NCBI GenBank assembly: GCA_041674325.1
Contig: JBAYWA010000001.1
Span: 1 to 27,353, forward strand
Source of the DNA: Melioribacteraceae bacterium
GTDB taxonomy: Bacteria > Bacteroidota > Ignavibacteria > Ignavibacteriales > Melioribacteraceae
Length of the DNA stretch: 27,353 bases
Direction: 5' to 3'
Positions 3-21,692 of this stretch are shown here, one piece after another. The notes beneath the pieces were generated by a model. That model saw nothing but the letters and a program-made list of their open reading frames with translations, had not been told where the DNA came from and did no database searches. Within the stretch, counting starts at the first letter, position 1, and each line of letters starts with the position of its first letter. The translations under genes were made by a program, and so were the position numbers.

Positions 3-2222
3 AATCTCAAAGGGACTATTTCCGGAAGAGTAATTGATGAGGTTTCAAACGAGCCTATACCGGGTGTTAATATTATTGTGATGGATTCTGAAAAGGGTGC
101 CGCAACAGACCTGGACGGCGAATTTAAGATATCCAATCTGGAAGCGGGCAATTATCAGCTGCGCATTTCAGCTCTCGGTTACAGCACAATTATCAAATCC
201 GATATAATAGTAAACAATGCAAAACCGACTGTTTTATTGATCAAAATGGTAGGCACATTGATTGAATTGGAAGGAGTGACTGTAAGATCCGGATATTTTG
301 AGATGGATCCAAGTGAAATTGGGAGCGTTGCCAATCTGAGTTATGAGGAAATTCGGCGTTCTCCGGGCGGCTTTGAGGATGTTGTCCGCGCCCTTTCTGT
401 TTTACCGGGTGTGGCGCAGGCAAGCGCGGGAAGAAACGATCTGGTTGTGCGGGGAGGCGCCCCTTCGGAAAACCTTTATATAGTCGATGGTTTTATTGTC
501 CCGAATATAAATCATTTCGGAACCCAGGGAGCAACCGGCGGACCGCTCAGTTTTATCAATCTTGATTTTGTGAGGGAGACAAGTTTTTCCAGCGGAGGAT
601 TCTCTTCTCACTACGGAGATAAACTATCATCAGTGCTTACAATCGATTTAAGGGAGGGAAGAAGTGACACTTTCGGCGGAAAAGGAACTATCTCAGCTTC
701 GCAATTCGGACTGAATCTGGAGGGCCCGATTGGGCAGAAAGGTAATTTTATATTCTCTCTGAGGCGGAGCTATCTTGATTTTATTTTCAACGCGGCCGGA
801 TTTAATTTCGTACCCGAATATTATGATGCGATGATTAAATTCAATTACGATATTGATTCTAAAAACAGGCTCTCGTATCTCTTCATTGGCGCTTTTGATA
901 AAGTGAAATTCAACAACAATAACTCAGATGATCTGTATGAAAATTCAAGAATACTCGGATCCGATCAGAATACATACATAACCGGACTCTCATACCGGAA
1001 ACTTTTTGATAAGGGGTATTTCAACTTATCGTTGAGCCGGAATTTTACCGATTATGATTCTTCGCAGCGCGATACGCTTTTTAATCCGATATTTTTGAAT
1101 AAATCGCGGGAAGGCGAGAACGAATTGAAAGGGGATCTGATTTATAAAATCTCATCTGAATCCGAATTGAATTTAGGTCTCTCCGCTAAGCTGATAAAAT
1201 TTTCCGCCGACATTAAGCTTCCGAATTTTACGACGAGCTTCGGTGAAAAGCTTAATATCACATCGCTCAATTCCGGGAGAAATTTTACAAAATTCGGATT
1301 TTATACACAGTATATAAATACAATGTTCGAGAGACTGAGAGTGAGTCTGGGAATCAGGGGAGATTACTTCAGCGGTATTAATACAGAATTATATTTTAGT
1401 CCGAGATTCTCATCTTCATTTATGCTCACTGAAATTTCCTCAGTTAATTTTAGCGCGGGCATTTATCATCAGAATCCCTCATATATTTGGCTCATTGCCG
1501 ATGATGCGAATAAAAATCTGAAAGCCGTCCGGGTAAATCAATTTGTTCTCGGATATGAAAGAATGCTGCAGGATGATCTGCGCGTTAAGGTTGAAGGCTT
1601 CTACAAAAAATATGAAGATTATCCCGCCAGTATGTTGCGTCCATATATTGTTCTGGCAAATACCGGAGCCGGTTACGGAGGCGGGGACGACAATTTCTCG
1701 GCATTCGGCCTCGAACCGCTGGCCAGCGCTGGAAAGGGGGAGGTTCACGGAATCGAATTTTCACTCCAAAAAAAATCATCGGACATTCCAAGCTATGGAA
1801 TTGTGAGTGTTACATGGAGCGAGTCGGTCTTTGCCGGATTGGACGGTGTTGAAAGGCCCGGCAGTTACAGTCAAAACTGGATTCTGAATTTAACCGGGGG
1901 ATATATTTTTAACAAAAAGTGGGAAGCTTCGTTCAAATTCAGATTTGCTACGGGCAATCCATATACTCAATTCAACACTGACGGGACTCAGAGTGTTATA
2001 AATTACAATATGTCGAGATTCGATTCCAATCATTCACTGGATGTAAGAGTAGACCGCCGATGGGATTTTGACGGATGGGCAATGATTACGTATATCGATA
2101 TTCAGAATATTTATAACCAAAAAAATACTTATACAATCCGCTGGGACTACAGAAAAGGAAGAGTAGCAGATCAGTCTTCAATAGGGCTGCTTCCGTCTAT
2201 CGGAGTAAGTGTGGAATTTTAA
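3..2222 (+). CDS. TonB-dependent outer-membrane receptor with an N-terminal carboxypeptidase-regulatory-like domain (5'-truncated by the window edge)
   Basis: The frame is open from position 3 (NLKGTISGRVIDEVSNEPIPGVNIIVM...), so the true start lies upstream of the ORF call at 78. It has a plug motif (LPGV...NDLVVRGGAPSENLYIVDG...NINHF), a barrel with LDVRVDRRW and YIDIQNIYN, and a C-terminal Phe (VSVEF). Confidence 0.92.
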   Translation, partial: NLKGTISGRVIDEVSNEPIPGVNIIVMDSEKGAATDLDGEFKISNLEAGNYQLRISALGYSTIIKSDIIVNNAKPTVLLIKMVGTLIELEGVTVRSGYFEMDPSEIGSVANLSYEEIRRSPGGFEDVVRALSVLPGVAQASAGRNDLVVRGGAPSENLYIVDGFIVPNINHFGTQGATGGPLSFINLDFVRETSFSSGGFSSHYGDKLSSVLTIDLREGRSDTFGGKGTISASQFGLNLEGPIGQKGNFIFSLRRSYLDFIFNAAGFNFVPEYYDAMIKFNYDIDSKNRLSYLFIGAFDKVKFNNNNSDDLYENSRILGSDQNTYITGLSYRKLFDKGYFNLSLSRNFTDYDSSQRDTLFNPIFLNKSREGENELKGDLIYKISSESELNLGLSAKLIKFSADIKLPNFTTSFGEKLNITSLNSGRNFTKFGFYTQYINTMFERLRVSLGIRGDYFSGINTELYFSPRFSSSFMLTEISSVNFSAGIYHQNPSYIWLIADDANKNLKAVRVNQFVLGYERMLQDDLRVKVEGFYKKYEDYPASMLRPYIVLANTGAGYGGGDDNFSAFGLEPLASAGKGEVHGIEFSLQKKSSDIPSYGIVSVTWSESVFAGLDGVERPGSYSQNWILNLTGGYIFNKKWEASFKFRFATGNPYTQFNTDGTQSVINYNMSRFDSNHSLDVRVDRRWDFDGWAMITYIDIQNIYNQKNTYTIRWDYRKGRVADQSSIGLLPSIGVSVEF

Positions 2223-3591
2223 ATCGCCTCTTCTTTTCCGGACCGGGTGGGGATTCCCAGATCATCCATTTTCCGGTAGAGTGAAGAGAGGCCTATTTCC
2301 AGCGCTTTGGCGGCCTCGTCTTTATTGTAATCAAATTTTCTGATGGTCTTCAGAATATGCTCCTTTTCAAAATCCTTTATAGCATCCTTAAGCGCGTCGG
2401 GATAGCCTTCCTGAATATTACCTCCTTTTATATGCTCGGCGAGGTCCGCAACTGTTATGGTTTCATTTGAAGCGAAGATTATCGCCCTCTCAATTACATT
2501 TTCCAATTCGCGAACACCGCCTCTCCAATCATGCGCTAAAAGTATTTTCATAGTTGCGTTATCAATACCAATTATCCTCTTACCCATCTCCTTACTGAAC
2601 TTCTCAATGAAATGGCTGACGAGGAGCGGGATGTCTTCCGACCGTTCATTTAAAGACGGGAGTTTTATCTCTATCACATTAAGCCGGTAATAAAGGTCCT
2701 CTCTGAATTCGTTGTCTTCGTCTTTTCAAACAAATCCTGATTTGTAGCCGCTATAATTCTCACATCCGTGGTGACGGATTTAATGCCTCCGACCGGAATG
2801 AACTCGCGGTCTTCTATTGCTCTAAGAAGCTTAACCTGAAGGTTAAGGGGCAGTTCCCCGATCTCATCAAGAAAAAGTGTGCCGCCGTCGGCGACTTTGA
2901 ATAGACCGGTTTTATCTTCTGTTGCTCCCGTAAACGATCCTTTCTTATGACCGAACAATTCACTCTCAATCAGATTTTCCGAGATGGCCCCGCAGTTTAT
3001 TGGCAGAAATATTTTTTCTTTTCTGCCGCTGTTTTTGTGGATAGCTTTTGCGACCAGTTCCTTTCCGGTACCGCTTTTCCCAAAAATTAAAACATTACTG
3101 TTAGTAGGGGCAACCTGAGAGATAATGTCGAAAACTTTTTTCATCGGCTGGCTCTTCCCGATAAGATTAGTAAATCCGGTATCGGAAGAGATTCTTTGTC
3201 TTAAAGATTTGTTCTCGGCTGCGAGCGTTTTATAGTCGATCAGTCTTTTTACTCTTATAATTACATCCTCAAATTCAACGGGCTTAATAAGATAATCATA
3301 AGCTCCGCAGCGCAGCGCGTCGATTGCAGTTTTTACGGAGGCAAATGCTGTCATTATGATAAAAAAAGTTTCCGGTGAAATTTTGGAGGAGGACTCGAGA
3401 AGCTGCATGCCGTCCAGTTTTGGCATTTTAATATCTGAAATCACAACATCATAAGAATTTTCCTGAATCTTTAACAAGGCCTCTTCGCCGTCTCCGGCTG
3501 TATCGGTAATGAAGCCCTCTTCGGCCAGAACCATTTTGAGGGAATCGCGGATCGGTTTCTCATCGTCGACTATAAGAATTTTTGAGGGCAT
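2219..3591 (-). pseudogene. Sigma-54-dependent response regulator (NtrC/AtoC family: receiver, AAA+, Fis HTH), interrupted by a 1-nt frameshift. This is either a pseudogene or a sequencing error.
   Basis: ORF 2674-3591 has the receiver (LIVDDE, SDIKMP), Walker A (GKSGTGKE), ESELFGH..GSFTGA and Walker B (LFLDEIGEL). The conserved NEFREDLYYRLNV continues in another frame and joins ORF 2219-2677 (IEIKLPSL, WRGGVRELENVIERA, HTH NKDEAAKALEIGLSSLYRKM). Confidence 0.85.
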
Positions 3592-6911: not shown

Positions 6912-6941
6912 CGCTGGCTCGGTAATTCGAGCCAGCGTTTT
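6912..6941 (+). terminator. Rho-independent terminator-like hairpin between the convergent DUF4139 and neuB genes
   Basis: A perfect 10-bp stem CGCTGGCTCG/CGAGCCAGCG (6912-6921, 6928-6937) with a 6-nt loop is followed by TTTT on the + strand. The flanking TTTACTC/GAGTAAA can extend the pairing. There is no U-tract on the - strand. Confidence 0.7.
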
Positions 6942-6983: not shown

Positions 6984-7877
6984 TCAGGCGGTAATATTAG
7001 GTTTGATTTTTCTGAGTTTGTCTATGCTTTGATATTCACTGCCGTAGACTTTTTTCACTCCATCTCCCAGCGCTTTTTCAAGGTCGCGAATATCCTGAAC
7101 AAGTTTTAGCATTCCGTTCACCTCAACTGAAGCGGCCTGATCGGTTCCCCACATCGCGCGGTCTAGTGTAATATGCCTCTCAACAAAGGCGGCGCCCAGT
7201 GCGACCGCGCCGAGTGTCGGGGCTAAGCCGGTTTCATGTCCGGAATAACCGATAGGCACTTCCTGGAATTTTTCTTTGTACGTTTTTATCACATTCAGAT
7301 TTAACTCCTCCAGAGCGCATGGATAATTTGAAGTAGTCTGGGCGATCATCAAATTATCTGTGCTCAAAATTTCCACAGCTTCTTCAATCTCATCTATTGC
7401 GGACATGCCCGTGGAGAGAATTACGGGTCTTCCTGTGGCTTTAATTTTTCTGAGAAGCTTGTGGTCAGTCAGACAGGCAGAAGCGATTTTATGCATAACT
7501 GGTTTGAATTTTTCCATAAAGTTCAACGCCTCTTCATCCCAGGGAGAAGCAAACCAATCAATCCCTTTCTGCCTGCAATATCCATCAATCTCCAGATATT
7601 CTTCGAATCCGAATTCAACTTTATGGCGGTATTCGAGATACGTTATTCTTCCCCAGGGAGTTTCTCTTTCGATATTCCATTGATCTTTAGGCACGCACAA
7701 TTCGGGTGTTCGCTTTTGAAATTTAACAGCGTTGCAGCCGGCGAAGACGGCTCCGTCGATCAATTTTTTCGCGAGTTCCAGCGATCCGTTATGATTTATC
7801 CCGATTTCGGCGATAATATAAACGGGTTCTCCGTCTCCGATCCATCTATTTCCGACTTTAACTTTGCTAATTTTCAT
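6984..7877 (-). CDS. neuB: NeuB-family ulosonic acid (phosphate) synthase, short form lacking the C-terminal SAF/antifreeze-like domain
   Basis: Motifs IAEIGINHNGS, AVKFQKR, FASPWD, KIASA, ILSTGMS, TSNYP, IGYSGHE and VERHITLDR..WGTDQAAS. It is 297 aa and ends right after LGDGVKKV. Confidence 0.93.
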   Translation of the reverse strand: MKISKVKVGNRWIGDGEPVYIIAEIGINHNGSLELAKKLIDGAVFAGCNAVKFQKRTPELCVPKDQWNIERETPWGRITYLEYRHKVEFGFEEYLEIDGYCRQKGIDWFASPWDEEALNFMEKFKPVMHKIASACLTDHKLLRKIKATGRPVILSTGMSAIDEIEEAVEILSTDNLMIAQTTSNYPCALEELNLNVIKTYKEKFQEVPIGYSGHETGLAPTLGAVALGAAFVERHITLDRAMWGTDQAASVEVNGMLKLVQDIRDLEKALGDGVKKVYGSEYQSIDKLRKIKPNITA

Positions 7878-8410
7878 CTGCCCCTTTTATTAATTGTTTT
7901 TGCCTCGATAATTAATTCAGCCAGATCTCTGAAGGCCCCGCAACCGCCGTTACTTTCTACAACCACATCAACGATGTTTTTGGCAAACTTTGTAGCATCA
8001 TTTGGACAAGCTGAGAGACCAACACGCTTCAATATTTCCAGATCGTTTGTATCGTCACCGATAAATGCTATCTCCCCGGCACTCAGATTTTTTCTGTTGA
8101 TAATATCCTCTAGTGTCTTTTCCTTTTCATAAACTCCCATGTGCAGTTCATCAATATTTAACTTTTGAGCTCTTGATTTGACTATCAGGGTATTCTCACG
8201 GGTAATAATTCCGGTTTCAACCCCAACAAGTTTTTTCAGGCGTTCAACACCCATCCCGTCTCTTATAGAATACCGCTTCATCAATTCACCCTTTTCGGAA
8301 TAATAAACGCCGGTGTCCGTTAGAACGCCATCGACATCCGTTAAAAGCAATTTAATTTTAGAAGCGCGCTTAAGAAGCTGGCTCCTTGTCAATTTTTTTT
8401 TCATACTCAT
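7874..8410 (-). CDS. HAD phosphatase of the KdsC/YrbI family (probably a nonulosonate-9-phosphate phosphatase)
   Basis: Motif I DVDGVLTD, DGMG, motif II IITRE, K and motif IV AFIGDDTND. Its stop overlaps the neuB start (ATGA). Confidence 0.9.
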   Translation of the reverse strand: MSMKKKLTRSQLLKRASKIKLLLTDVDGVLTDTGVYYSEKGELMKRYSIRDGMGVERLKKLVGVETGIITRENTLIVKSRAQKLNIDELHMGVYEKEKTLEDIINRKNLSAGEIAFIGDDTNDLEILKRVGLSACPNDATKFAKNIVDVVVESNGGCGAFRDLAELIIEAKTINKRGR

Positions 8411-8476
8411 TCTATTCTTAAAGGTTCTTAAATCAATTTATCTTTTTTTATACTTTTTCCCTAATTACCCAAAATA

Positions 8477-9280
8477 TTACCAGCAGGTCCAGCCGCCATC
8501 GACAACAAGGTTTGCCCCGGTCATATAAATTGACGCGTCGCTGGCAAGGAAAATCAATGCTCCTCTATAATCCGAAGGATTTGCCATTCTTCCAAGCGGA
8601 GTTTTAGTCGAATATTTTTCAACGAAAAATTCATCCTGATTATTAAACACGCCGCCGGGTGTAAGAGTGTTAACGCGCACTCCATCCTTTCCCCAGTATG
8701 CAGCCAGATATTTAGTGAACATAATCACGGCCCCTTTTGTGGCGGAGTAAGCAGGCGGCTTATAAAAAGACTGTGATCCGTCCTCTTTGATATATAACGA
8801 TTGGTCCGGCGCTGTTAAACCGTATGTAGACGCTATGTTTATTATACTACCCGATCTTTGTTTTGCCATCTCAGTCCCTATAATCTGTGATGCTAAAAAA
8901 ACGCCGGTCAGATTCACATCAACAGATTTTTGCCACAATTCAAGAGGATAATTTTCAAATTTTGACTGTTCGCTTGCGGCTTTTGGATCTTCGAACATAT
9001 CATTAATTGCGGCATTGTTCACAAGGATATCAATTTGTCCGAACTTCCTGATTATTGTATCTTTTAAAATTTTGACCGATTCCGGTTTAGTCACATCAAG
9101 CGCGGCGCCGAGTGATTCTGTTGCAAGGGTTCCGGCAAAATTCACGCATCCGCTTTCGTCAATATCGGCCACTACGACATTCGCCCCTGCCTCACTTAGA
9201 GCACGGCAATGTTCCCGGCCTATCAAGCCGAGAGCTCCTGTAACGACCGCTGTTTTATTCTCCAGATTAAAAATATTCAT
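8477..9280 (-). CDS. Short-chain dehydrogenase/reductase (PtmA-like, probably NAD-preferring)
   Basis: TGALGLIG, an acidic residue after beta-2 (VADID), NNAA, INIASTYG, catalytic YSATK, VRVNTLTPGG and NLVVDGG. Confidence 0.92.
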   Translation of the reverse strand: MNIFNLENKTAVVTGALGLIGREHCRALSEAGANVVVADIDESGCVNFAGTLATESLGAALDVTKPESVKILKDTIIRKFGQIDILVNNAAINDMFEDPKAASEQSKFENYPLELWQKSVDVNLTGVFLASQIIGTEMAKQRSGSIINIASTYGLTAPDQSLYIKEDGSQSFYKPPAYSATKGAVIMFTKYLAAYWGKDGVRVNTLTPGGVFNNQDEFFVEKYSTKTPLGRMANPSDYRGALIFLASDASIYMTGANLVVDGGWTCW

Positions 9281-9293
9281 TCAGATCTCAAAT

Positions 9294-10628
9294 TTATTTT
9301 TTTACCGGTTTCATATTGAAATTATCCACTTTTCTAAACACTGGCAGCACAGGTTTTCCCAGAAGCATTTCCTTTAAATTATTTTTTTTGACCGCGTTTT
9401 TAAGGAACACAAGTGATTCTTCCAGCGCCTGGAGAGTGTAATTTACATCTGCATCGCTATGGGAAAAAGAAAGATTATGAAATCCCTGCCACAAAACGCC
9501 ACGTTTTATCATCTCCTGCTGCATCAGAGATTTCTGAATAAGGGGATCTCCCGCTTTTTCATCGAATGTAGCCATTGACCGCCAATTGTATCCGACAGCC
9601 TTCGTGTAATCCATTCCCAAATTCTGAGCTATTGTATTATATCCTTCCTTCAATTTTTTTCCCTGGTCGCTGAGATATTGAGGAACGTTTTTATCCCGCA
9701 GCTCCTCTATAGTTGCTTTCGTTGCCGCCAGAGAGAGTGCCTCGCCTCCGAACGTTGTATAAAAAAAGATATCATCATCAGCAAGATCCATAATTGATCT
9801 TTTACCTGTCAGAATAGAGATGGGCATTCCGTTGGCGACTGCTTTTGAGAAGGTTGCCAGATCCGGGGTAATTCCGAAATACTCCTGAGCCCCGCCGAGC
9901 GCCATTCTGAAACCCGTCCACATTTCATCGAATATAAGCACAATACTTTTTTCTTTACAGAGATCTGCCAGCTTATGCAGAAAATTATCTTTCGGCTCAG
10001 CAAATACAACTGGTTCCAGTATAATTGCCGCCACATCATCGTCAATCGATTTTCTTACAGAGTCGATGTCATTGTAATTAAAAGTATATGATATTGCCTG
10101 TACAGCTTCGGGTATTCCATGATTACGGGCGGTTACAGCTATGTACCAATCGTGCCATCCGTGGTAGCCGCAGCATAGAATTTTATTCTTCCCTGTATGA
10201 GCGCGTGCAAGACGGACTGCGGCACTTGTTGCATCAGCACCGGTTTTGCTGTACCGGACGGCTTCAGCATTCGGCACGACTTCCCTAATTAATTCCGCAA
10301 CTTCCACTTCAAGCGGGTGCATCATCGAAAAAGTAATTCCGTCTTTCAATTGTTCTTTTATCGCCGTGTCAATTTTGGGATAGGCATAGCCAAGTGAAAG
10401 GGGACCAACGCCCATCATGTAATCGATATATTCATTGCCGTCAACATCCCACACATGAGACCCGCTGCCCCGCACTAAATATTTGGGAGCTATCCCGTTC
10501 ACCCACTGACCGGGTCCCTTTGCAAGGGTTTGGGTGACTGATGGTATTAATCCAAGCGCGCGATTGTATAATTCGTCGGATTTAGAAATATCAGGATAAT
10601 TATTTTGAAGTGAAATTTTGTTCGGCAT
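9294..10628 (-). CDS. Class III PLP-dependent aminotransferase (glutamate-1-semialdehyde aminomutase-like), probably acting on a sugar
   Basis: VWDVDGNEYIDY..G.GPLSLG, GYHGW, ILEP, LIFDEMWTGFR and PLP-lysine TFSKAVANGMP. A GAGG RBS precedes the ATG. Confidence 0.92.
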   Translation of the reverse strand: MPNKISLQNNYPDISKSDELYNRALGLIPSVTQTLAKGPGQWVNGIAPKYLVRGSGSHVWDVDGNEYIDYMMGVGPLSLGYAYPKIDTAIKEQLKDGITFSMMHPLEVEVAELIREVVPNAEAVRYSKTGADATSAAVRLARAHTGKNKILCCGYHGWHDWYIAVTARNHGIPEAVQAISYTFNYNDIDSVRKSIDDDVAAIILEPVVFAEPKDNFLHKLADLCKEKSIVLIFDEMWTGFRMALGGAQEYFGITPDLATFSKAVANGMPISILTGKRSIMDLADDDIFFYTTFGGEALSLAATKATIEELRDKNVPQYLSDQGKKLKEGYNTIAQNLGMDYTKAVGYNWRSMATFDEKAGDPLIQKSLMQQEMIKRGVLWQGFHNLSFSHSDADVNYTLQALEESLVFLKNAVKKNNLKEMLLGKPVLPVFRKVDNFNMKPVKK

Positions 10629-10742
10629 AGTACCTCATAAATCAAACCGTCAGTTTTTGGAAAAAGTTCAGTCAACTTATCAAGATTAAGTGCAAAGTTA
10701 TGTGATCTCTTCCACACAATAATGATATTACTAAACTAATAG

Positions 10743-11654
10743 CTAATCTCTAGAAGCTAATCGCTTAAAAATTTTGCCAGCAATTCTATCAGCTGTAAAT
10801 CCCTCATACTCTAAAACATCATTCAGCAAACCCGGCCTGAACCACTTGTTCATCAAAGCGAAAGGGAGAACATCCGCGGTTTTTTTGTTCCTCAGAAGCA
10901 CTTCGGCAAGTATGGAATAGAGGCCGCCGGTAACAAAATGATCTTCCAGTGTAACGATCAATCTGCATTCTTCTGCCGCTCTCAGGATTGCGGCTTCGTC
11001 CACCGGTTTCGGTGTTCTAATATTAATCAGCCGTACCGATACCCCTTTTGATTCAAGTATCTCTTTTGCCTTGAATGCCTCTCCAAATAAAAAACCGTAA
11101 ACCAGAATTGCTACATCATTCCCGCCTCCAAAAACTTCTGCTTTTCCGATCTCAAAGCTGTTATGTTCCACTAAGTTTTTTGTATTGTTATACCGGATAT
11201 AGAATGGGGAAGGGCTTGTAAAAACTGCTTTCAGGCCTTTCAGCATATCGTCCTCGTCCGCGGGGCAGAATAGATTTACGTTTGGAATTCCTCTCATGAT
11301 TGAGACATCCTCGATTGCCTGGTGTGTTGGTCCGTTGCCGTCCGATAAAAATCCCGGTACCGCCCCTACAATTTTAACCGGAAGATTGGCAATTCCCACG
11401 TCGGTACGGATAAATTCGAATGCTCGCATCGTTAAAAATGTAGCAAGGGCATGAACAATCGGCGTCCTGCCGCGTAATGCCAATCCGGCAGCCATTCCTA
11501 TCATTGTCTGTTCGGTAATGCCCGTATCTATAAAATTATTTTTGATCAGAGGGGGAAGATTTCTGAAAGCTGCCCTGTTCTCCGAAGTCATTATTATATA
11601 ACGGTCATCATTATTTATAAGATCGAGTACAATATCTGCATATGTCATTATCAT
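10743..11654 (-). CDS. Transketolase-like ThDP enzyme, C-terminal (pyrimidine-binding and C) subunit
   Basis: DTGITEQTMIGMAAGLA, GPTHQAIED, FCPAD, YIR, IGKAEV, KPVD and LEDH..TGGL. ATGA overlap with the N-terminal subunit gene. Confidence 0.92.
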   Translation of the reverse strand: MIMTYADIVLDLINNDDRYIIMTSENRAAFRNLPPLIKNNFIDTGITEQTMIGMAAGLALRGRTPIVHALATFLTMRAFEFIRTDVGIANLPVKIVGAVPGFLSDGNGPTHQAIEDVSIMRGIPNVNLFCPADEDDMLKGLKAVFTSPSPFYIRYNNTKNLVEHNSFEIGKAEVFGGGNDVAILVYGFLFGEAFKAKEILESKGVSVRLINIRTPKPVDEAAILRAAEECRLIVTLEDHFVTGGLYSILAEVLLRNKKTADVLPFALMNKWFRPGLLNDVLEYEGFTADRIAGKIFKRLASRD

Positions 11655-12508
11655 CTCGCAACAATGGTTTCTGAAGTTAACTTGGTTTTTTTTGCGCCGT
11701 GCAATTCTTTGAGGAGCTGCTCAATCTCTTCCTGCTTGAAATTTACGAACCAGCGGTCTGCCCGTTTTTCTATGCTTGGCAATCCCTTGCCTCTAACCGT
11801 CTCGGCAATTACTACGGACACCTTACCTTTTTCGAATGGAAATTTTTTGAATGTCTCCTCCATCTTCTCAAAATTATGGCCGTTTACTTTTCTGACTCTG
11901 CATCCGAAAGCTTCAAATTTTTTGTTTAGCGGTTTGAGAGGAATTAAATCTTCAGTCTGCATATTAGCCTGAAACTGATTCCTGTCAACTACTATTAGCA
12001 AATTATCAAGATGATATGCAGATGCAACAAGAAGCGCTTCCCACATTGATCCTTCGTTAAGCTCTCCGTCTCCAACCACAACTACAACTCTGTTCTTTTG
12101 TTTGCGAAGTTTGCAGTCGATAGCAACTCCCATCGCGACTGAAAGATTGTGGCCGAGCGAACCGGAATGAAATTCTATGCCGGGAATGTTTCTGTTAGGA
12201 TGCCAGTAGATGAAATCATTTGTGCTCAGATGATTTTTCAGCCTTTCTTTTTCAAGCAGACCAATTTCTACATATGTGCCGTAGAGAGCCGGTACATCGT
12301 GTCCTTTCGAGAGGAAAAAGTAGTCCCTCTTGGGATCACTGAGATTTTCTTTGGATACTTTCAGAAATTCCTTATAGAGGTAAACTATCAGATCGGCACA
12401 GGAGAGGGATGCGCCGATAAAACAGCCGCCACGCCCGCTCATTCCGATAATATGTTCTCGGACTCTTAGCGCCGTTTCCTGTAATTCGAGTAATTTTTTT
12501 TTATTCAT
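11651..12508 (-). CDS. Transketolase-like ThDP enzyme, N-terminal (diphosphate-binding) subunit
   Basis: RDYFFLSKGH, HP...PGIE..SGSLG and the ThDP motif GDGELNEGSMWEA...LDNL..VVDRN. Also FG..V..VNGH and TVRGKG. Confidence 0.92.
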   Translation of the reverse strand: MNKKKLLELQETALRVREHIIGMSGRGGCFIGASLSCADLIVYLYKEFLKVSKENLSDPKRDYFFLSKGHDVPALYGTYVEIGLLEKERLKNHLSTNDFIYWHPNRNIPGIEFHSGSLGHNLSVAMGVAIDCKLRKQKNRVVVVVGDGELNEGSMWEALLVASAYHLDNLLIVVDRNQFQANMQTEDLIPLKPLNKKFEAFGCRVRKVNGHNFEKMEETFKKFPFEKGKVSVVIAETVRGKGLPSIEKRADRWFVNFKQEEIEQLLKELHGAKKTKLTSETIVAR

Positions 12509-13308
12509 TTTAAGTTCAATTTGTTTTTGTATTCGTCAATGTGATTAAGTTCATTAAGATGATTTTCGTACCAGTATTTACCTAGATATTTTCTGTTGAT
12601 TGAGGCAATTTCCGGTTTTCGTACAAGTAAATCTAATATATCGTTAAGACTAAAAGTAGGATTCCCGGGATAAAGTTCTTCATAAATATTTTTTATTAGC
12701 CGGTAATCCTCCTCATAATCGATTGTCCACCGATGGGAGGCTGAAAAATCCTTACCTGCCTCCCATCCTATATTTGCAACTCTGAATTTACCGGGATTTT
12801 CCCAGAAGTATGGGGTGGTGTGTTCGCGTTCAAAAGTCTTCCCGGCTTCTTTCCATGCGGTTATAAGTGCTTTAAAAGAAAAAATTTCAACATCGTTGCC
12901 GTCCGGATAGCTTGCCGGATGAAGGTTGCTGACATAATCGAATTTATCATTACTTTTAATAAAGAACGATAATACTTTGTCGATTATTCCCGGGTCAATC
13001 AGCGGGCAGTCGGAAGGAATTTTCACTACCGCATCTGCGCCGTACTTTTTGCCCGCCTCATAATGCCTGTCAAGAAGATCCGCCAGATTTCCCCTGAAGC
13101 ATTCAATCTTTTCCCTTTTGCACAATTCAGCCACCGGATCATCGTCTTTATACAGAGAAGTAGCAACAACAATCATTCCGGCTAATTTAGAAAAGGAGAC
13201 ACGTTCTGTCATCCGGAGTAGAAGAGGTTTACCCAGAATAGGCAGCATTATTTTTCCCGGTAATCTGGTAGATGACATTCTCGCCTGTATGACTGTAACA
13301 ATCTTCAT
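12505..13308 (-). CDS. SpsF-type acylneuraminate/ulosonate cytidylyltransferase (NTP_transf_3 family)
   Basis: IQARMSSTRLPGK, PSDCPLIDP, YPDGNDVE, REHTTPY and RWTIDYEED. ATGA overlaps on both sides. Confidence 0.88.
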   Translation of the reverse strand: MKIVTVIQARMSSTRLPGKIMLPILGKPLLLRMTERVSFSKLAGMIVVATSLYKDDDPVAELCKREKIECFRGNLADLLDRHYEAGKKYGADAVVKIPSDCPLIDPGIIDKVLSFFIKSNDKFDYVSNLHPASYPDGNDVEIFSFKALITAWKEAGKTFEREHTTPYFWENPGKFRVANIGWEAGKDFSASHRWTIDYEEDYRLIKNIYEELYPGNPTFSLNDILDLLVRKPEIASINRKYLGKYWYENHLNELNHIDEYKNKLNLK

Positions 13309-14312
13309 TTATAATCGAATTTTTTATGAATTTCGTCTAATGCTGCGTCAGGAAAATCAATTAAATATTTTCCCAGGCGAGCAATCCTTTCCGCGGATGA
13401 TCCGTTATTCTGGATAGGCTGCAGTTTTTTAAGTTGTTCGATATCGTAATATGAATGGACTTCTTTTCCCAGCGCCAGTCCGATATAAACCGTTGAAGAA
13501 AATTTTGTGATCAGGAGATCGCAGTTCGCGATCATATGATTGGTATTCCCTGTCGAAAAAACCAGAGCGCCCGGCGCTATCTCGCTAATCTCTTTTGAGG
13601 CGCGCTCAACGTTCTCATTTGGGTGCAATTTAAAGATAAGCTGCCTTCCCTTTGCGATATTCACACACTCTCTGATGAATTTTTTCCGGTTTTCGATTTT
13701 GTAGGTCTCTCTCGCATCCGAAGTGCAGACAAGAGCAAAATTTTTATGCGGAAAGTCATTATTCAGAAATTGTACGGCATTATCAAAATTCGGAATTCCT
13801 GTTACAATTATTTTTTCGGCTTTGGCCCCTTTGCGGATGAAAAAATCTTTGTAGCCGTAAGAAGCAACGCAGAACAACGTATATAAGTCGGACATCCCCA
13901 TTGTTGATGTGCTCGCCAGCCACCGGTAGAGTTTGAGATATTTAACCAGATAGAACATTAAATTTTCCGGATCGGTCATTCCCTCCTGAACCAGGATTAC
14001 TTTTTTGCCGCGTATATTTTTCGGCACAATCAGGTCCGCGCAGGTATAAACCAGGTCGTAATTATATTTTTCGCCCCGGTAATCCATCTCCAGACCGTTA
14101 TTTGACAGATATTCTTCAGTTTTCCAACGGAACGGCCCGTTCAGAATCGAAAATTTTCCGTACCCTCTACTCACTCCGTAATTGATCCAGCCGTCGCCGT
14201 AATAGGGAGTGAATAAACAATCGAATTCATTCAAATGCAGGGATATCTGATGCATCATGGAAGTCTGATTGAGCGAACCGCAAATAAAAAGAATTTTTTT
14301 CTTTGTCATCAA
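13305..14312 (-). CDS. Putative GT-B fold CMP-ulosonate glycosyltransferase (hypothetical protein)
   Basis: VQEG (109-111), IIVTGIPNFD, FKLHP (227-231) and ITKFSSTV..GLALGK (SST 272-274) resemble GT-B sialyltransferase and TagF-like motifs. It is the first gene of the coupled operon. Confidence 0.6.
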   Translation of the reverse strand: MMTKKKILFICGSLNQTSMMHQISLHLNEFDCLFTPYYGDGWINYGVSRGYGKFSILNGPFRWKTEEYLSNNGLEMDYRGEKYNYDLVYTCADLIVPKNIRGKKVILVQEGMTDPENLMFYLVKYLKLYRWLASTSTMGMSDLYTLFCVASYGYKDFFIRKGAKAEKIIVTGIPNFDNAVQFLNNDFPHKNFALVCTSDARETYKIENRKKFIRECVNIAKGRQLIFKLHPNENVERASKEISEIAPGALVFSTGNTNHMIANCDLLITKFSSTVYIGLALGKEVHSYYDIEQLKKLQPIQNNGSSAERIARLGKYLIDFPDAALDEIHKKFDYK

Positions 14313-16923: not shown

Positions 16924-17325
16924 ATGTTTACCACCAAAGTTAAAGTCTATTTCTACGACGCGGACCCCGCCGGAATTATTTTCTACGCCAGTTTATTCAA
17001 ATTTGTTCACGCGGCGTATGAAGATTTTATGAGAGGATTGCATACCGAGCGGGATTATTTTTTCGATAAAGATTATATACTGCCGATAATTCACGCGGAG
17101 GCCGATTACGTAAGGCCGATTAAGGTCGGCGATGAATTGAGAGTTGATGTAGTCGTGAGTCTGCTGAAAAATTCTTCTTTTGAATTAAGTTATAAATTTT
17201 ACAAATCGGACGGACAGTTTACAGCAATCGCCAAAACGGTTCATGTTTGTGTGCAGAAAGATCAGTTCAAGAAAATTGAACTGCCGAAGGAATTTCTGGA
17301 AAAGATGAAGCTTAATCTAAATTGA
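16924..17325 (+). CDS. Hot-dog fold acyl-CoA thioesterase (4HBT class), probable DHNA-CoA hydrolase (MenI function)
   Basis: The ATG at 16924 follows an AAGGAG RBS. It has YFYDADPAGIIFY, HAEADY..P...GD.L.V and SSF.LSY. Its 3' end overlaps menE by 14 bp. Confidence 0.8.
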   Translation: MFTTKVKVYFYDADPAGIIFYASLFKFVHAAYEDFMRGLHTERDYFFDKDYILPIIHAEADYVRPIKVGDELRVDVVVSLLKNSSFELSYKFYKSDGQFTAIAKTVHVCVQKDQFKKIELPKEFLEKMKLNLN

Positions 17326-18808
17326 GCTCTTTGAGAAGTGCAGGACGGATTATTTTACCCATCTCATTTCTTGGCAGAATGGCGAGTTGAAAAATTCGTT
17401 TTGGTATTTTATATCCGGCGAGTTTTGTTTTTAAAAATTTTTTCAGATCATTCTCTTTAATATCAGCACATTCAACAGCCGCACAGACAATCTGACCCCA
17501 ATTTGAATCTTCTAAAGAAAAAACATAAACATCGCTGACTCCCGGGAATGTACTGATCGCGTTTTCGACTTCGGCACAGCTGACATTCTCGCCCCCGGTA
17601 ATTATAAGATCCTCACGTCTCGATTCAACGAACAGGTATCCATTATTATCAATTCTGCCTAAATCCCCGGTATGATACCATCCGTTTATAATTTTTCCGG
17701 CTGTAGCCTCAAAATCCTTGTAATATTCTTTGAACAAAGAATCCGAAGCGATATAAATTTCTCCCGACTCCGGCACCATCGAATTGGCCTCATCATTTTC
17801 AGGCAGACTGTGCTGAATCATAATTCTGTTCTGCCCCAAGGGCTTTCCTGATGAGGAGATGTAATTTCTGAAAGATGTTGCCGGCAGGGCGGTAACCATT
17901 GAACAAGTTTCAGTTGAGCCGTATACTTTTACAACCGGCCATCCTCTGTCAATTGCATCCAGATAGAGTTGTTCTTCCGACGGTCCTCCGCCCAGAAATA
18001 AAAATCTTAAATTTGAAGCCGGAGAGAAATTATTCTTTAATAAACGGTGAAGCATTGTTGGAACTAATGAGATGCACGTCGGACGAAATTGCCTAATCCC
18101 GGCAACGATATTCTCATATCTTAACCCGGAAGGGAACACAAGCGCGGAGCCGGAGATTAGTGAACGGATCAAAATCATAAATCCGCCGATATGAAAGAGA
18201 GGGAGGGAAGAGAACCAAATATCATCATCCGATAGCATCGCGAAAGAATCGGTTGCTTTAACGCTCTGATAGAGACTTCGGAATGTATGAACAACAGCCT
18301 TGGGATCGCCGGTGCTTCCTGATGTGAACATTATCAAAGAAGGATCAAGAGGAGAATAATCTGCTGACCTTAGCACATTATGCTTTTCCGGATTCGTAAC
18401 TATATGATCTTTTGTCTCCCGGAATGGAAAGTGAATTTTATCGGGAAAACTCAATTCTGAATATTGCGCCGCTGTTTTTTCATCAAAAATGAGAAATTTG
18501 ATCTCAACTTTGTTTATCTGCTTTTCAAGTTCGGCCGGCAGAAGTTGCGTGCTTATCGGAACAGGAACCGCCCCAATAATCCAGAGAGCATTTATGATAG
18601 TTAAAAAATTATAGTTGTGACTGAATAAAACAGCAATCCGGTCGCCCTTACAAATTCCATTGTCAATCATAAATTCAGCGGCGGCAAAACATTCATCCGC
18701 CAATTCCCCGTAAGTGATAATCCTATCTTCCAGAATCACCGCGTTTTTACCCGGCTGCTTTTCAGATTGTTCAATAATCCAATGCTTTGTACTTCCCGCG
18801 GATATCAT
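17312..18808 (-). CDS. menE: o-succinylbenzoate-CoA ligase
   Basis: Adenylate-forming motifs FTSGSTGDPKAV, LPLFHIGG, YGSTE, YHTGDLG, RREDLIITGGENV, AGYKIPK and NEMGKI. It is the last gene of the men operon. Confidence 0.9.
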   Translation of the reverse strand: MISAGSTKHWIIEQSEKQPGKNAVILEDRIITYGELADECFAAAEFMIDNGICKGDRIAVLFSHNYNFLTIINALWIIGAVPVPISTQLLPAELEKQINKVEIKFLIFDEKTAAQYSELSFPDKIHFPFRETKDHIVTNPEKHNVLRSADYSPLDPSLIMFTSGSTGDPKAVVHTFRSLYQSVKATDSFAMLSDDDIWFSSLPLFHIGGFMILIRSLISGSALVFPSGLRYENIVAGIRQFRPTCISLVPTMLHRLLKNNFSPASNLRFLFLGGGPSEEQLYLDAIDRGWPVVKVYGSTETCSMVTALPATSFRNYISSSGKPLGQNRIMIQHSLPENDEANSMVPESGEIYIASDSLFKEYYKDFEATAGKIINGWYHTGDLGRIDNNGYLFVESRREDLIITGGENVSCAEVENAISTFPGVSDVYVFSLEDSNWGQIVCAAVECADIKENDLKKFLKTKLAGYKIPKRIFQLAILPRNEMGKIIRPALLKELNLD

Positions 18809-19872
18809 AAGAGCTTCAGATCAAAAAAATTAGGATATGTCTCCGGATTAAAATCGATTCTCCCGTTTTTTATTACATACGGATCGGGGAATAGACTGTT
18901 CTTAAAATAATCCGAAGTATCGAGGCCATGGGGAAGGGAATGGTTAACTGAAGCAGCCAGAAACACTAAAGCGTTTTTTCCTACCGGACTTTCAAACGAT
19001 GAGGAGATAATAATTTTCTTTTTTTTCTTCTCCGCTTCTTTGATAAGTTTCAATGAGGAGAGGATTCCGCCCAGAATCATCGGTTTAAGGATAAGAAATT
19101 CAACATTGCAGTGATTTATCAGGTCTTCAGCTCTTTCAAATGAAACAAGCGATTCATCAAGTGCGATAGGTACGGGTGAATCTTCAATCAAATGGAAATT
19201 GCTGCACACAAATTCGCACGGTTCCTCAACGTAGTCGATATTAAATTGCTGGAAACGGTCAAGGTATTCCAACGCTTCATCAGCGCTCCATGCCCGGTTC
19301 GCATCCAGTCTCAAATTAATATTACCCCCGAATTCATTACGTATCTCCTTTAGGAGGAGAAAATCATCTAAAACATCATTCCGGCCTATTTTAATTTTAA
19401 ACGTGGTGAATCCATCACGAATCTTCCTCCTGATTTTATTCAGCACAAAATCCTTGCTGCCGATTCCTACAACAGCATTTGAAGGGACGGATAAATTAAA
19501 TTCATCAAAATAATCAGATAATATTTTTCTGTTCCGGAGGATTAACAGATTTACCAATGCCTGCTCAAAAGCGAATCGGAGTGACGGGGTAAGATTGTGT
19601 CTTACTGTAAAAACCTGGACCGATTCGAAATTATCGTCAATCTTTTCTCCCGGAATACGGGTCTGTAAACTTTCCAATAGTTGCTTCGAATCATCAAGAG
19701 ACTCACTGCTGAATCCGGGCAATGGCGAGCATTCTCCGGAAGCGCGGTTATTAAACTCGTCTCTCAATTCTATTATAAATCCGCTACGTTGACTTATTGT
19801 TTTTGTTGAAGTATGAAATGGAGATTGCAGATCGAGAGAAAAATAAATGTATTTAAATTCTGATATTGTCAT
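18805..19872 (-). CDS. menC: o-succinylbenzoate synthase (enolase superfamily)
   Basis: GECSPLPGFS.E, the KxK motif FKIKIG, metal ligands LDAN..W, VEEP and ALDES, LKP, and HGL.T. Confidence 0.9.
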   Translation of the reverse strand: MTISEFKYIYFSLDLQSPFHTSTKTISQRSGFIIELRDEFNNRASGECSPLPGFSSESLDDSKQLLESLQTRIPGEKIDDNFESVQVFTVRHNLTPSLRFAFEQALVNLLILRNRKILSDYFDEFNLSVPSNAVVGIGSKDFVLNKIRRKIRDGFTTFKIKIGRNDVLDDFLLLKEIRNEFGGNINLRLDANRAWSADEALEYLDRFQQFNIDYVEEPCEFVCSNFHLIEDSPVPIALDESLVSFERAEDLINHCNVEFLILKPMILGGILSSLKLIKEAEKKKKKIIISSSFESPVGKNALVFLAASVNHSLPHGLDTSDYFKNSLFPDPYVIKNGRIDFNPETYPNFFDLKLL

Positions 19873-20786
19873 AATAGAATTCCGGCTGCGAAAAGCAATC
19901 CATAGAGGGCTGATAGCTTGGCCGTAAGTTCCAGAGTCTTATTTAATTCGCTGCCCCTCTTTGTATAGATCATTCTGATCAACTTTACCGCGAGGGGTAA
20001 ACTCAGAAGGGGAAGAAAGACAAAAATTTCTTTTTTAAATGTAAAGTAAACTATAAAGAGTATAGAATAAGAAATCAGCATGAAAAAGAGGTACTGAAAT
20101 CGTCCGAACTTTTCCCCGAAAATCACAATAAGTGTTCTCTTTCCGTTTGAACTGTCCTCTTCCCGGTCCCGGTAATTATTGACTACCAGAATGTTTGTTA
20201 TTAATGCGCCCACCGGCACGGAAGCCCAGAATGCCATGGCGCTGAACTCATTTGCCTGCACATAGTAAGTGCCCACAGTTCCTACAAAACCGAAGAAAAG
20301 AAATACCGCAATATCTCCCAATCCGTTATAGGCCAATGGAAACGGACCTGCCGTGTATGCGATCCCGGCCAGAATTGAGAGAATTCCAATAATCAGTATG
20401 AACCAGCCGCTGTGAATTATCAGATACAAACCGAGGAGGAAACTTAAACCGAATGAAAAATATATTCCGAACTTCATCTCGTTGACAGACAGGAGTCCCG
20501 AGACAGTTGCTCTCTGGGGACCAACGCGGTCAGCTTTATCGGAACCGCGGAGGAAATCGAAAAGATCATTAACAAAATTAGTTCCGATTTGAATAAGCAG
20601 CGAACATAGAAGGGCAATTAAAGCCGCCAATGCATTAAATTTAAAATCATTAATCGCAATTGCAGATCCCACTACAACCGGAACAATTGCGGCTGCAAGA
20701 GTTCTTGGCCGGCTTGCCAGAATCCAGGCATTAGTTTTTGAGGTTAAATTATTCAGGGATTGAGCCATTCTTTGTCTTGTTTTCAA
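19869..20786 (-). CDS. menA: 1,4-dihydroxy-2-naphthoate polyprenyltransferase
   Basis: W..ASRPRTL, NFVNDLFD..RGSD...R.GP, YT.GP..LAY.GLGD and NNYRD..ED...GKRTL, with multiple transmembrane helices. An alternative start at MAQSL is possible. Confidence 0.93.
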   Translation of the reverse strand: MKTRQRMAQSLNNLTSKTNAWILASRPRTLAAAIVPVVVGSAIAINDFKFNALAALIALLCSLLIQIGTNFVNDLFDFLRGSDKADRVGPQRATVSGLLSVNEMKFGIYFSFGLSFLLGLYLIIHSGWFILIIGILSILAGIAYTAGPFPLAYNGLGDIAVFLFFGFVGTVGTYYVQANEFSAMAFWASVPVGALITNILVVNNYRDREEDSSNGKRTLIVIFGEKFGRFQYLFFMLISYSILFIVYFTFKKEIFVFLPLLSLPLAVKLIRMIYTKRGSELNKTLELTAKLSALYGLLFAAGILL

Positions 20787-20851
20787 TTCGATTAATCGGT
20801 TAATAAAGTGAGCAGCGAAGCATTCAGAGTGAATACTTCATATCTTTTTGA

Positions 20852-21685
20852 TTACGGCACCCTTGGAAATTTTTTGAAGTCCGGTTTCCGTTTTTCATTG
20901 TAGGCATTTTTGCCTTCCTGCGCCTCCTCGCTCATATAATAGAGCAATGTAGCGTTGCCGGATAGCTCCTGGATTCCGGCCTGTCCGTCCAATTCAGCGT
21001 TGAAAGCTGATTTGAGTAACCGGAGAGCCAGAGGACTCATTTCTAGAATTTCTCTTGCCCATTGAATACCTTCCGCCTCCAGTTGGTCGATTGGAACAAC
21101 CTTATTCACGAGTCCCATATCAAGCGCTTCCTTAGCATTATACTGACGGCAGAGAAACCATATCTCCCGGGCTTTTTTCTGTCCTACGATGCGTGCAAGG
21201 TAGCTGGCGCCGAATCCTCCGTCGAAACTGCCCACTTTGGGTCCGGTCTGTCCGAAGACAGCGTTATCCGCCGCAATCGACAGGTCGCAGACCACATGAA
21301 GTACATGCCCGCCTCCTATGGCATAACCAGCAACAAGCGCAATAACCGGCTTCGGGATGGAACGGATCTGCTTTTGAACATCGAGTATGTTCAGCCGTGG
21401 TACACCGTCTTTTCCGATATAACCTTTGTTCCCGCGAATCGATTGGTCGCCCCCGGAACAAAAAGCATATTTCCCGTCCTTAGATGGTCCTTTTCCTGTT
21501 AACAGAATTACTCCGATAGATGAATCTTCCCGCGCGTCAGCAAAAGCGTCAAAAAGTTCCAATGTTGTTTCCGGCCTGAACGCATTTCTCTTTTCGGGGC
21601 GGTTTATAGAAATCTTTGCAATACCATCCATCTTTTCGTAAATGATATCTTTATATTCTTTTGCGCTCTTCCAATCTAAACTCAT
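20852..21685 (-). CDS. menB: 1,4-dihydroxy-2-naphthoyl-CoA synthase
   Basis: [47 protein letters not shown] and EEAQEG..A..EKR.PDF. Confidence 0.97.
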
Positions 21686-21692
21686 TATTACC

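Follow-up and report, generated by a model that had tools for sequence, protein, structure and literature searches.

What does a split transketolase do once the residues that hold its sugar substrates have been exchanged for others? The question is raised by two minus-strand open reading frames (ORFs) at 10743-12508 in the window, by which we mean the whole stretch of 27,353 nucleotides analysed here (positions 1 to 27,353 of contig JBAYWA010000001.1, Melioribacteraceae bacterium, GCA_041674325.1). The two ORFs lie within a tightly packed eight-gene minus-strand operon (6984-14312) and encode the alpha and beta subunits of a transketolase (TK)-like pair; all residues and operon genes given below are on the minus strand. 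We propose that the pair is a specialised and competent thiamine diphosphate (ThDP) enzyme that would generate a hydroxylated C2 carbanion, with hydroxypyruvate as the probable donor. Its step would be an accessory one, linked to the aminotransferase of an undescribed CMP-amino-ulosonate pathway, and we give this reading a probability of about one half. The fold, the residue pattern, the clade, the tie to the cassette and the dispensability are results of the analysis, whereas catalytic competence, donor, partner and pathway position are inferred.

The TK alpha subunit (285 aa; 11651-12508) corresponds to the ThDP diphosphate-binding (PP) domain (Pfam Transketolase_N, 91 bits), and its top match in the Protein Data Bank (PDB) is the N-terminal component of a split TK (6yak chain A, HMMER E 2.8e-46). 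The TK beta subunit (303 aa; 10743-11654) combines the pyrimidine-binding (Pyr) domain with the C-terminal domain (Pfam Transket_pyr, 91.9 bits; Transketolase_C, 69.3 bits) and best matches the C-terminal component of the same enzyme (6yaj/6yak, E 4.6e-39). After split TK, the next solved relatives of the pair are human transketolase and DXS. In an AlphaFold model of the X-joined alpha-beta chain (pLDDT 79.8, pTM 0.81), the TM-score by query is 0.87 to human TK, 0.77-0.81 to bacterial and Plasmodium TKs and 0.46-0.48 to DXS; the predicted arrangement of the PP, Pyr and C domains is thus of the TK type. By analogy with the solved split TK, the subunits probably assemble as alpha2-beta2.

Residue equivalences were established with HMMER alignments to PDB chains 6yak/6yaj (split TK), 3mos (human TK) and 2o1s (E. 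coli DXS). Sites were counted over distinct sequences, comparing 42-43 members of the clade described below with 36 other split TK-like proteins, and aligned sites were matched to E. coli TktA His26, His261, Asp469 and His461 in textbook numbering. At the G-His of the GHPG motif (human His37; E. coli His26) the alpha subunit has Cys29-Phe30 (12419-12424). The second residue is Phe in 41 of 43 clade members (one Tyr, one gap) and His in all 34 of the other split TK-likes aligned at this site. At the W-His of WHG (human His258; E. coli His261) stands Trp253-Phe254 (11747-11752), with Trp253 in 43/43 members and Phe254 in 40/43 (the remaining three have Tyr, Ile and Leu). HMMER puts Phe254 opposite the His and an ungapped MAFFT alignment puts Trp253 there, so the register is uncertain by one residue and the residue is aromatic either way. 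No His occurs anywhere in TK alpha residues 236-262, nor at either lost-histidine site in any of the 43 distinct clade members. Beta Asn107 (11334-11336) takes the place of the Asp in (E)DGxxHQ (E. coli Asp469; E. coli DXS Asp427). It is Asn in 42/42 clade members and never in the other split TK-likes, which have Leu (18), Asp (9), Tyr (5) or Trp (2). The Arg91-Asp469 salt bridge of E. coli TK (PMC5073344) is lost from both ends, with Leu94 of His93-Leu94 (12227-12232) at the Arg91 position in 38/43 members versus Arg in canonical proteins. In published descriptions, His26, His261, Asp469 and His461 form hydrogen bonds with the hydroxyls of the sugar and with the oxygen of the aldehyde (PMC11387542, PMC5073344).

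Of the canonical phosphate ligands Arg358, Ser385, His461 and Arg520, the last is the only one kept, as beta Arg154 (11193-11195; DXS Arg478), which is Arg in 42/42 members. Beta Val99 (11358-11360), at the His of ATHAG (E. coli His461), is not conserved within the clade (Val 20, Ile 13, Phe 8, Ser 1). The Arg358 position corresponds to Ile2, or falls before the start codon in most relatives, and the Arg is therefore absent, not swapped for Tyr. The Ser385 position is Ala, and beta Glu25-Asn26-Arg27 (11574-11582) stands in place of the ADL(A/S)PS loop (E. coli Asp381-Leu382-Ala383), with Glu25 and Asn26 both in 42/42 members and the new Arg27 in 40/42. Further residues are gained. His93, a new clade-specific His, is present in 42/43 members versus Tyr, Leu or Phe in the others. 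Tyr101-Trp102-His103 (12200-12208) sets two clade-specific aromatics (x-Gly in the others) before the His that equals E. coli His100. His114 (12167-12169), just before the GSLGH cofactor loop, is His in 35/43 members versus Ser, Asn, Pro or Ala, and beta His68 (11451-11453), two residues before the Phe434-equivalent position, is His in 42/42 versus Ser, Asn or Cys.

These alignments uphold three replacements called in the initial annotation, His26 by Phe30, Asp469 by Asn107 and His461 by Val99, and place no His or Asp at the rewritten sites. Its call of Phe254 for His261 stands as far as the loss of the His is concerned, with the exact residue uncertain by one. Its pairing of Arg358 with Tyr5 is set aside, because Tyr5 aligns with the Tyr, Phe or Ser that follows Arg358 by three residues in other TKs. 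The cofactor and donor residues that it had listed as retained (GDG, SKGH70, WH103P, E48 in GITEQ and GPTH111Q) were confirmed codon by codon: His70 of SKGH (12299-12301; E. coli His66; 43/43 clade members and 36/36 others), His103, Gly146-Asp147-Gly148 with Asn177, which delimit an intact ThDP-Mg motif (11978-12073), beta Glu48 of GITEQ, the cofactor-activating Glu (11511-11513; E. coli Glu411), and beta His111 of GPTHQ (11322-11324; E. coli His473). His70, His103, Asp147, Asn177, beta Glu48, beta His111 and beta Arg154 are invariant both in the clade and in the other split TK-likes. Such strict conservation of the cofactor residues, together with new invariant residues, points to an active site that is changed and not decayed. 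It also bears on the possibility that the pair is catalytically dead, or purely structural, and is simply retained in its operon. Two textbook catalytic His are indeed gone and the pair is dispensable in four genomes, as described below, but the ThDP-Mg motif, the activating Glu and the His66, His100, His473 and Arg520 equivalents are invariant across phyla, which makes a dead pair highly improbable.

The altered residues mark a discrete clade. In a search of 1.84 billion cluster representatives, a small group of relatives carried the Cys/Ser-Phe and Trp-Phe/Ile motifs, and all other split TK-likes listed were of the His-His type. The signature residues have become fixed across 42-43 distinct orthologues, whose identity is 46-90%, and never occur in the 36 other split TK-likes, so the pattern is not due to chance. 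With one genome per species, 42 loci match the window alpha subunit at 55-87% identity and the next matches are at ≤44%; these loci span at least eight phyla, including Ignavibacteriota, Bacteroidota, Chlorobiota, Chloroflexota, Acidobacteriota, Myxococcota and Pseudomonadota. Identity to the window alpha subunit is likewise bimodal among 301 genomes of the phylum (40 genomes at ≥58%, the next at ≤41%), and in a maximum-likelihood tree a single branch, with an SH-aLRT support of 98%, has all His-type sequences to one side. When alpha and beta were aligned to the natural fusion P0123 as separate rows, the beta rows stacked on the homologous alpha domain; that alignment was set aside in favour of one with fused or joined chains only. 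Cultured carriers of the clade enzyme include Hymenobacter negativus, Arcicella rigui, Mucilaginibacter sp. SP1R1 and Spirosoma telluris.

The split TK-likes outside the clade (L057-L097) vary at some of these sites as well. Most have His26 and His261 but Leu, Tyr or Trp in place of Asp469, and His461 is likewise missing (THH motif). Asp469 is kept by only a quarter of them, in agreement with a natural D469L split TK reported previously (PMC13663882). As a family, the split TK-likes are not uniform in function, with examples in Streptomyces and Chloroflexota.

Whether the window pair could be an ordinary second pentose-phosphate TK isoenzyme was considered in view of its Pfam domains, which score above their cut-offs, and of the label 'transketolase' that its relatives carry in public records. 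The pair has the ThDP-Mg motif GDG-X(25-30)-N, the activating Glu and the His66, His100 and His473 equivalents expected of a TK. It has neither the His26/His261 pair, nor Asp469, which governs stereoselection at the 2-OH of the acceptor, with Arg91 (Asn107 and Leu94 instead), nor the phosphate site. Its scores on the NCBIfam transketolase equivalog NF004559 (alpha 208 and beta 147 bits) fall short of the 488-bit cut-off, compared with 367 bits for a natural fusion of the clade and 342 bits for a canonical split alpha chain alone. A canonical tkt of full length, distinct from the pair and divided between two contig ends, is present in the same genome and shows the motifs GHPG, GPLGQ, THDS...GEDGPTHE and LTRQ; the split pair is therefore not the pentose-phosphate enzyme. 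This canonical tkt, the failure of the pair to reach the equivalog cut-off and its membership of a discrete, cassette-tied clade thus give good support to the earlier statement that this is not a pentose-phosphate transketolase. With His26, His261, Asp469, Arg358, His461 and Ser385 all changed and the gene context cassette-specific, an isoenzyme is extremely improbable. The pair belongs to the TK superfamily and fold but does not show the defining catalytic features of a transketolase.

The gene neighbourhood suggests where such an enzyme may act. The operon runs in the order transferase, cytidylyltransferase, TK alpha, TK beta, class-III aminotransferase, short-chain dehydrogenase/reductase (SDR), KdsC-like phosphatase and short NeuB. 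Its first gene (13305-14312) encodes a putative transferase without a firm family (weak TIGR04396 match only) that keeps the same position in about 40 loci. An SpsF/KdsB-type cytidylyltransferase (12505-13308; Pfam CTP_transf_3; PDB 6oew, E 2e-40) is encoded directly upstream of TK alpha, and 4-nt overlaps (ATGA) join its gene to the TK alpha start and TK alpha to TK beta. Directly downstream of TK beta lies the gene for a glutamate-semialdehyde-aminomutase-like, class-III aminotransferase (9294-10628; Pfam Aminotran_3), whose PDB relatives include amine, ketone and aldehyde transaminases. It is followed by the SDR (8477-9280; profile matches), a KdsC / KDN-9-phosphate-phosphatase-like HAD phosphatase (7874-8410; NF058599, 157.6 bits with a cut-off of 180; TIGR01670, 135 bits with a cut-off of 107) and, as the last gene, a short NeuB-type synthase without a SAF domain (6984-7877; Pfam NeuB, 257 bits; PDB 6ncs, E 3e-41). 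Pfam and NCBIfam profile scans found no N-acyltransferase among the cassette proteins, and scans for promoter-like and terminator-like signals inside the operon stayed at chance level. This gene content suggests that the cassette makes a CMP-activated, aminated ulosonic acid of the Kdn/Kdo type via a phosphorylated intermediate. A NeuB-type synthase, a KdsC-like phosphatase and a cytidylyltransferase are shared with the CMP-Kdn pathway of Bacteroides thetaiotaomicron, which proceeds via Kdn-9-phosphate; to our knowledge, that pathway includes no ThDP enzyme, aminotransferase or SDR. Literature searches returned no published description of the cassette or of the enzyme.

Searches with tblastn of the window's eight proteins against all fetched loci showed that the enzyme travels with this cassette. 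Clade loci with enough flanking sequence have other cassette genes alongside, nearly always in the same order, and a clear cassette homologue occurs in 0/38 loci of His-type relatives, where only two weak SDR or aminotransferase matches (26-28%) were found. In the 301-genome sample, 39 of the 40 enzyme-bearing genomes encode an orthologue of the aminotransferase. Chloroherpetonaceae-like genomes have the cassette genes scattered over the genome, yet all are present, and in one of them the TK pair and the aminotransferase still belong to the same co-directional string of genes. Among more distant clade members (46-50% identity) the cassettes are rearranged but the partners are the same, and one version has the NeuB-CBS-SAF-AP-endonuclease fusion described for Leptospira interrogans in a paper that does not mention transketolase (PMC3438082). 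In a rearranged cassette (L010:996-13657) the order is aminotransferase, HAD, TK alpha, TK beta, SDR, cytidylyltransferase and NeuB; after these come genes for a LIC12162-family protein, a B12-binding radical SAM enzyme, a flippase, another cytidylyltransferase and a SPASM radical SAM enzyme. In a variant locus (L013:5620-11721) the fusion known from L. interrogans, here 744 aa long (CBS-NeuB-SAF-AP-endonuclease), is encoded beside the aminotransferase, the cytidylyltransferase and the clade TK. Cassettes from other phyla (L009:1559-12224 and L056:3362-7062) are flanked by lipid-related genes (FA_hydroxylase, LPG_synthase_TM and an MMPL transporter), of which the window cassette has none at its flanks. 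The contexts of the divergent or fragmentary members L016, L024, L056 and L102, read with Pfam, gave no functional clue.

The linkage is strong without being exclusive. A complete single-contig genome (G213) encodes a full-signature TK pair (L102:9560-11349; 61% and 52% identity, MAFFT), which stands alone: the genome yielded neither a NeuB homologue (E ≤1e-10) nor a match to the aminotransferase (E ≤1e-60). The signature, whose specificity for NeuB-linked clusters the initial annotation wished to see examined, is therefore tied to them closely but not absolutely. Neighbours of this copy include genes for an MGDG-synthase-like glycosyltransferase and an OlsF-like bifunctional acyltransferase, both lipid genes. 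Conversely, four genomes of two families encode an orthologue of the aminotransferase and no clade TK. Their loci (L098-L101, from G057, G185, G177 and G149) retain the transferase, cytidylyltransferase, aminotransferase, SDR, phosphatase and NeuB genes, with 16-217 bp at the spot where the two TK genes would sit. The six proteins of these TK-less cassettes show no extra divergence relative to TK-containing cassettes at matched distance. For example, identities to the window proteins in TK-less L098 are 66% for the transferase, 69% for the cytidylyltransferase, 85% for the aminotransferase, 82% for the SDR, 78% for the phosphatase and 76% for NeuB, and in TK-containing L108 they are 67%, 68%, 85%, 82%, 71% and 78%, respectively. 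The pair is thus a usual but dispensable part of the cassette. Had any of the neighbours taken the TK product as its substrate, some adaptation on its part would be expected; therefore, we read the enzyme as acting off the main line, or late, where downstream enzymes do not sense it. The same observations make a compulsory role doubtful for the suggestion of the initial annotation that the enzyme acts on the ulosonate itself, as the cassette can do without the TK and the TK occurs once without NeuB.

The lack of divergence also bears on an in-line cascade, in which the enzyme would form an unusual alpha-hydroxyketone (a ketose or ketol) that the class-III aminotransferase then aminates at its keto group, before or after the NeuB condensation. 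The gene order of the standard cassette, where TK beta is followed directly by the aminotransferase, favours such a cascade, as do the co-directional string in which the TK pair and the aminotransferase stay together where the rest is scattered, and the solved relatives of the aminotransferase, which use ketones or aldehydes without an alpha-carboxylate. An analogy is offered by the aminoshikimate (AHBA) route, which has a split transketolase. A further precedent is AniP/AniQ in anisomycin biosynthesis (PMC11387542). With four clean TK-less cassettes in which the aminotransferase, SDR, NeuB, cytidylyltransferase and transferase have not diverged further, we nevertheless regard an in-line cascade as unlikely.

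The two-gene alpha/beta layout is common to the window pair, the split TK of Carboxydothermus hydrogenoformans (ChyTK; 6YAK/6YAJ) and other biocatalytic split TKs (PMC13663882), as are the ThDP motif, the activating Glu and the His66, His100, His473 and Arg520 equivalents. Unlike the window pair, ChyTK has GHPG, WHG and EDGASHQ (His26, His261 and Asp469), against Phe, Trp-Phe and Asn in the window. Further differences lie in the Ser385 loop and at His461; the two enzymes share only ~40% identity and fall in separate clades. E. coli TktA and human TKT resemble the pair in predicted fold, domain arrangement and cofactor chemistry, whereas the ligands of the acceptor, the C3/C4 hydroxyls and the phosphate are rewritten in the window. 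Engineered E. coli TKs (D469T/E/Y, S385Y, R520Q and H26Y; S385Y/D469T/R520Q) have been moved from phosphorylated sugars to non-phosphorylated, aliphatic and aromatic aldehydes (PMC5073344). Positions rewritten in the clade are among those targeted, although the engineered enzymes keep His26 and His261 as carbonyl ligands and the clade has lost both. AniP of the anisomycin pathway is a natural TK-family enzyme without the His-rich sugar-binding motif that uses a 2-oxo-acid donor and a non-phosphorylated acceptor (PMC11387542). Its partner enzymes are a transaminase, a dehydrogenase and a glycosyltransferase, and its likeness to the window pair is by description only: AniP is a single chain with Trp at Asp469, Asp at Arg520 and His at His261 (PMC11387542), and the window has Asn, Arg and Phe. 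AniP thus documents at least one earlier natural rebuild of the TK pocket, for a 2-oxo-acid donor and a non-phosphorylated acceptor and beside a transaminase. As for DXS, the beta chain scores 158 bits on the dxs model versus 147 bits on the TK model, and the Arg520 equivalent (DXS Arg478) is kept. However, the His100 position of the pyruvate-using DXS is occupied by Phe or Tyr (PMC13663882), whereas the window has His103. The His26 and Asp469 equivalents, lost in the window, are present in DXS. The domain arrangement of the pair is not DXS-like, and it shows neither the single-chain active-site arrangement (TM 0.46-0.48) nor the Phe/Tyr of that family.

Phosphoketolase (XFP) has Asn at the Asp469 position, in an NG(F/P)(S/T)HQ motif, as in the window beta subunit; the motif DHNGFSHQ was taken from a relative's genome. 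Under L-INS-i, phosphoketolase His64, His97 and His142 align with TK His26, His66 and His100, and an equivalence of window His114 with phosphoketolase His142 was dropped. The enzyme could accordingly be imagined to perform phosphoketolase-like acyl chemistry, in which dehydration of dihydroxyethyl-ThDP would give acetyl-ThDP, whose acetyl group would go to the newly introduced amino group. In its favour, Asn in phosphoketolase forms part of the nucleophile site (PMC6435721), the dehydration residues His97/His142 correspond to the invariant His66 and His100 equivalents, and the absence of an N-acyltransferase from the cassette fits as well; such chemistry would explain both the dispensability and the coupling to the aminotransferase. 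However, phosphoketolase has His26/His261 equivalents (His64 and His320), which are Phe in the window pair, and its size and domains differ, with no match to the XFP central domain in the pair by Pfam. From the phosphoketolase constellation (His64, His320, Tyr501, Asn549 and His553) the window matches only the Asn549 and His553 equivalents, along with His97 and His142, and the likeness therefore comes down to one convergent residue. We know of no ThDP-dependent N-acetyltransferase, and acetyl-CoA is present in every cell. We therefore find acyl chemistry very unlikely, and the same holds for a specific version with an amine-transaminase partner, in which serine-derived hydroxypyruvate would yield the acetyl-ThDP that N-acetylates the amino-ulosonate. 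If true, the enzyme, the SDR and the aminotransferase would jointly turn a Kdn-type sugar into a sialic-acid-type N-acetyl amino sugar without acetyl-CoA or a hexosamine precursor.

The reading that we favour, an accessory step coupled to the aminotransferase, divides the pocket in two. Fixed are the cofactor machinery, with the Glu411 and GDG...N equivalents, and the side on which the His66, His100 and His473 equivalents would hold the hydroxymethyl group and the carbonyl of a two-carbon intermediate, and the rebuilt side would be the one that once served the C3/C4 hydroxyls of the ketose, the acceptor carbonyl and the sugar phosphate. A dihydroxyethyl-ThDP carbanion would be formed from a small hydroxylated donor, most likely hydroxypyruvate, and the two-carbon unit would then be passed on or released in a step coupled to the class-III aminotransferase. 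This step would lie off the main line of the pathway, as a side reaction or late tailoring and not as supply of the NeuB substrate. In canonical TKs, His26 and His261 deprotonate the C3-OH of the donor and bind the acceptor carbonyl. Hydroxypyruvate is the favoured donor because its decarboxylation needs neither His in the first half-reaction, and a hydroxylated C2 intermediate is likely because the His100 equivalent is invariant in the clade and replaced by Phe/Tyr in pyruvate-using DXS. The losses at Asp469/Arg91, Arg358, His461 and the Ser385 loop would remove recognition of a D-configured 2-hydroxy aldose phosphate, and the gained aromatics, with beta Arg27 and Arg154, would be suited to a partner in ring form or with a carboxylate. 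A partner without phosphate, as put forward in the initial annotation, or without an alpha-hydroxyl would agree with the kept donor side and the rewritten acceptor side, and engineered E. coli TK (PMC5073344) and AniP (PMC11387542) point in that direction as well. The invariant Arg154 and the new Arg27 leave room for an anionic substrate, with either a phosphate or a carboxylate.

The same residues could be assembled into a tail-trimming route, in which the SDR oxidises the penultimate side-chain hydroxyl of the ulosonate to a ketol and the enzyme, treating this as a ketose-type donor, removes two carbons; transamination of the aldehyde left behind would then give a terminal amine like that of Kdo8N. 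The kept His66 and His100 equivalents would hold the terminal CH2OH, Asn at Asp469 could donate a hydrogen bond to the ring oxygen, Phe30, Tyr101, Trp102 and Phe254 could stack on the pyranose ring, and the loss of the phosphate ligands fits as well. However, ketol cleavage is the textbook reaction most dependent on His26/His261 for deprotonation of the C3-OH, and both are gone; moreover, the TK-less cassettes show no extra divergence. Tail trimming is therefore quite unlikely.

Several points weigh against the accessory, hydroxypyruvate-using enzyme that we favour. Docked aldehydes hydrogen-bond to both His26 and His261 (PMC5073344), and loss of both should for this reason slow ligation to a carbonyl, so that simple carboligation is not obviously favoured. 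Donor and partner cannot be read from sequence, the invariant Arg154 and new Arg27 could still bind phosphate, and the low-confidence stretches of the AlphaFold model are the active-site loops. The complete genome that has the enzyme without NeuB or the aminotransferase suggests that its substrates there may be general metabolites, or that this copy may be a relic. Finally, the dispensability of the pair could reflect promiscuous neighbours, or a different product from the four TK-less cassettes.

Outside the TK genes, the window contains a perfect 11-bp-stem hairpin (8 G-C pairs) at 6912-6937, between the end of NeuB and a convergent DUF4139/MuiA-like gene, which is likely a bidirectional terminator that closes the operon. 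A minus-strand NtrC-type sigma-54 activator (2219-3591) is present as two ORFs with a 4-nt overlap, one for the receiver and AAA domain (2674-3591) and one for the AAA lid and Fis-type HTH (2219-2677); a frameshift, a fault in the assembly or a genuine split could account for it. A minus-strand menaquinone operon follows at 17312-25606 (MenF, MenD, MenH, MenB, MenA, MenC and MenE-like by Pfam), with a divergent MarR gene at 25888-26313. Elsewhere in its own genome, the organism encodes a second NeuB of canonical length (G000:C4:2473-3189; a 354-aa frame with 327 bits to Pfam NeuB), and it probably makes more than one ulosonic acid.

Few ThDP enzymes have been studied as thoroughly as transketolase, and its His26, His261 and Asp469 are treated as near-universal. 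Here, a natural clade spread over many phyla has replaced all three, yet conserves the cofactor machinery strictly, and thereby points to an undescribed ThDP reaction. Its setting would be a pathway, widespread but uncharacterised, that serves a sialic-acid-like sugar of the cell surface in bacteria of soil, water and sludge. The changed positions are those that engineers mutate to widen the substrate range of TK, and the clade may thus offer natural starting points for biocatalysis.

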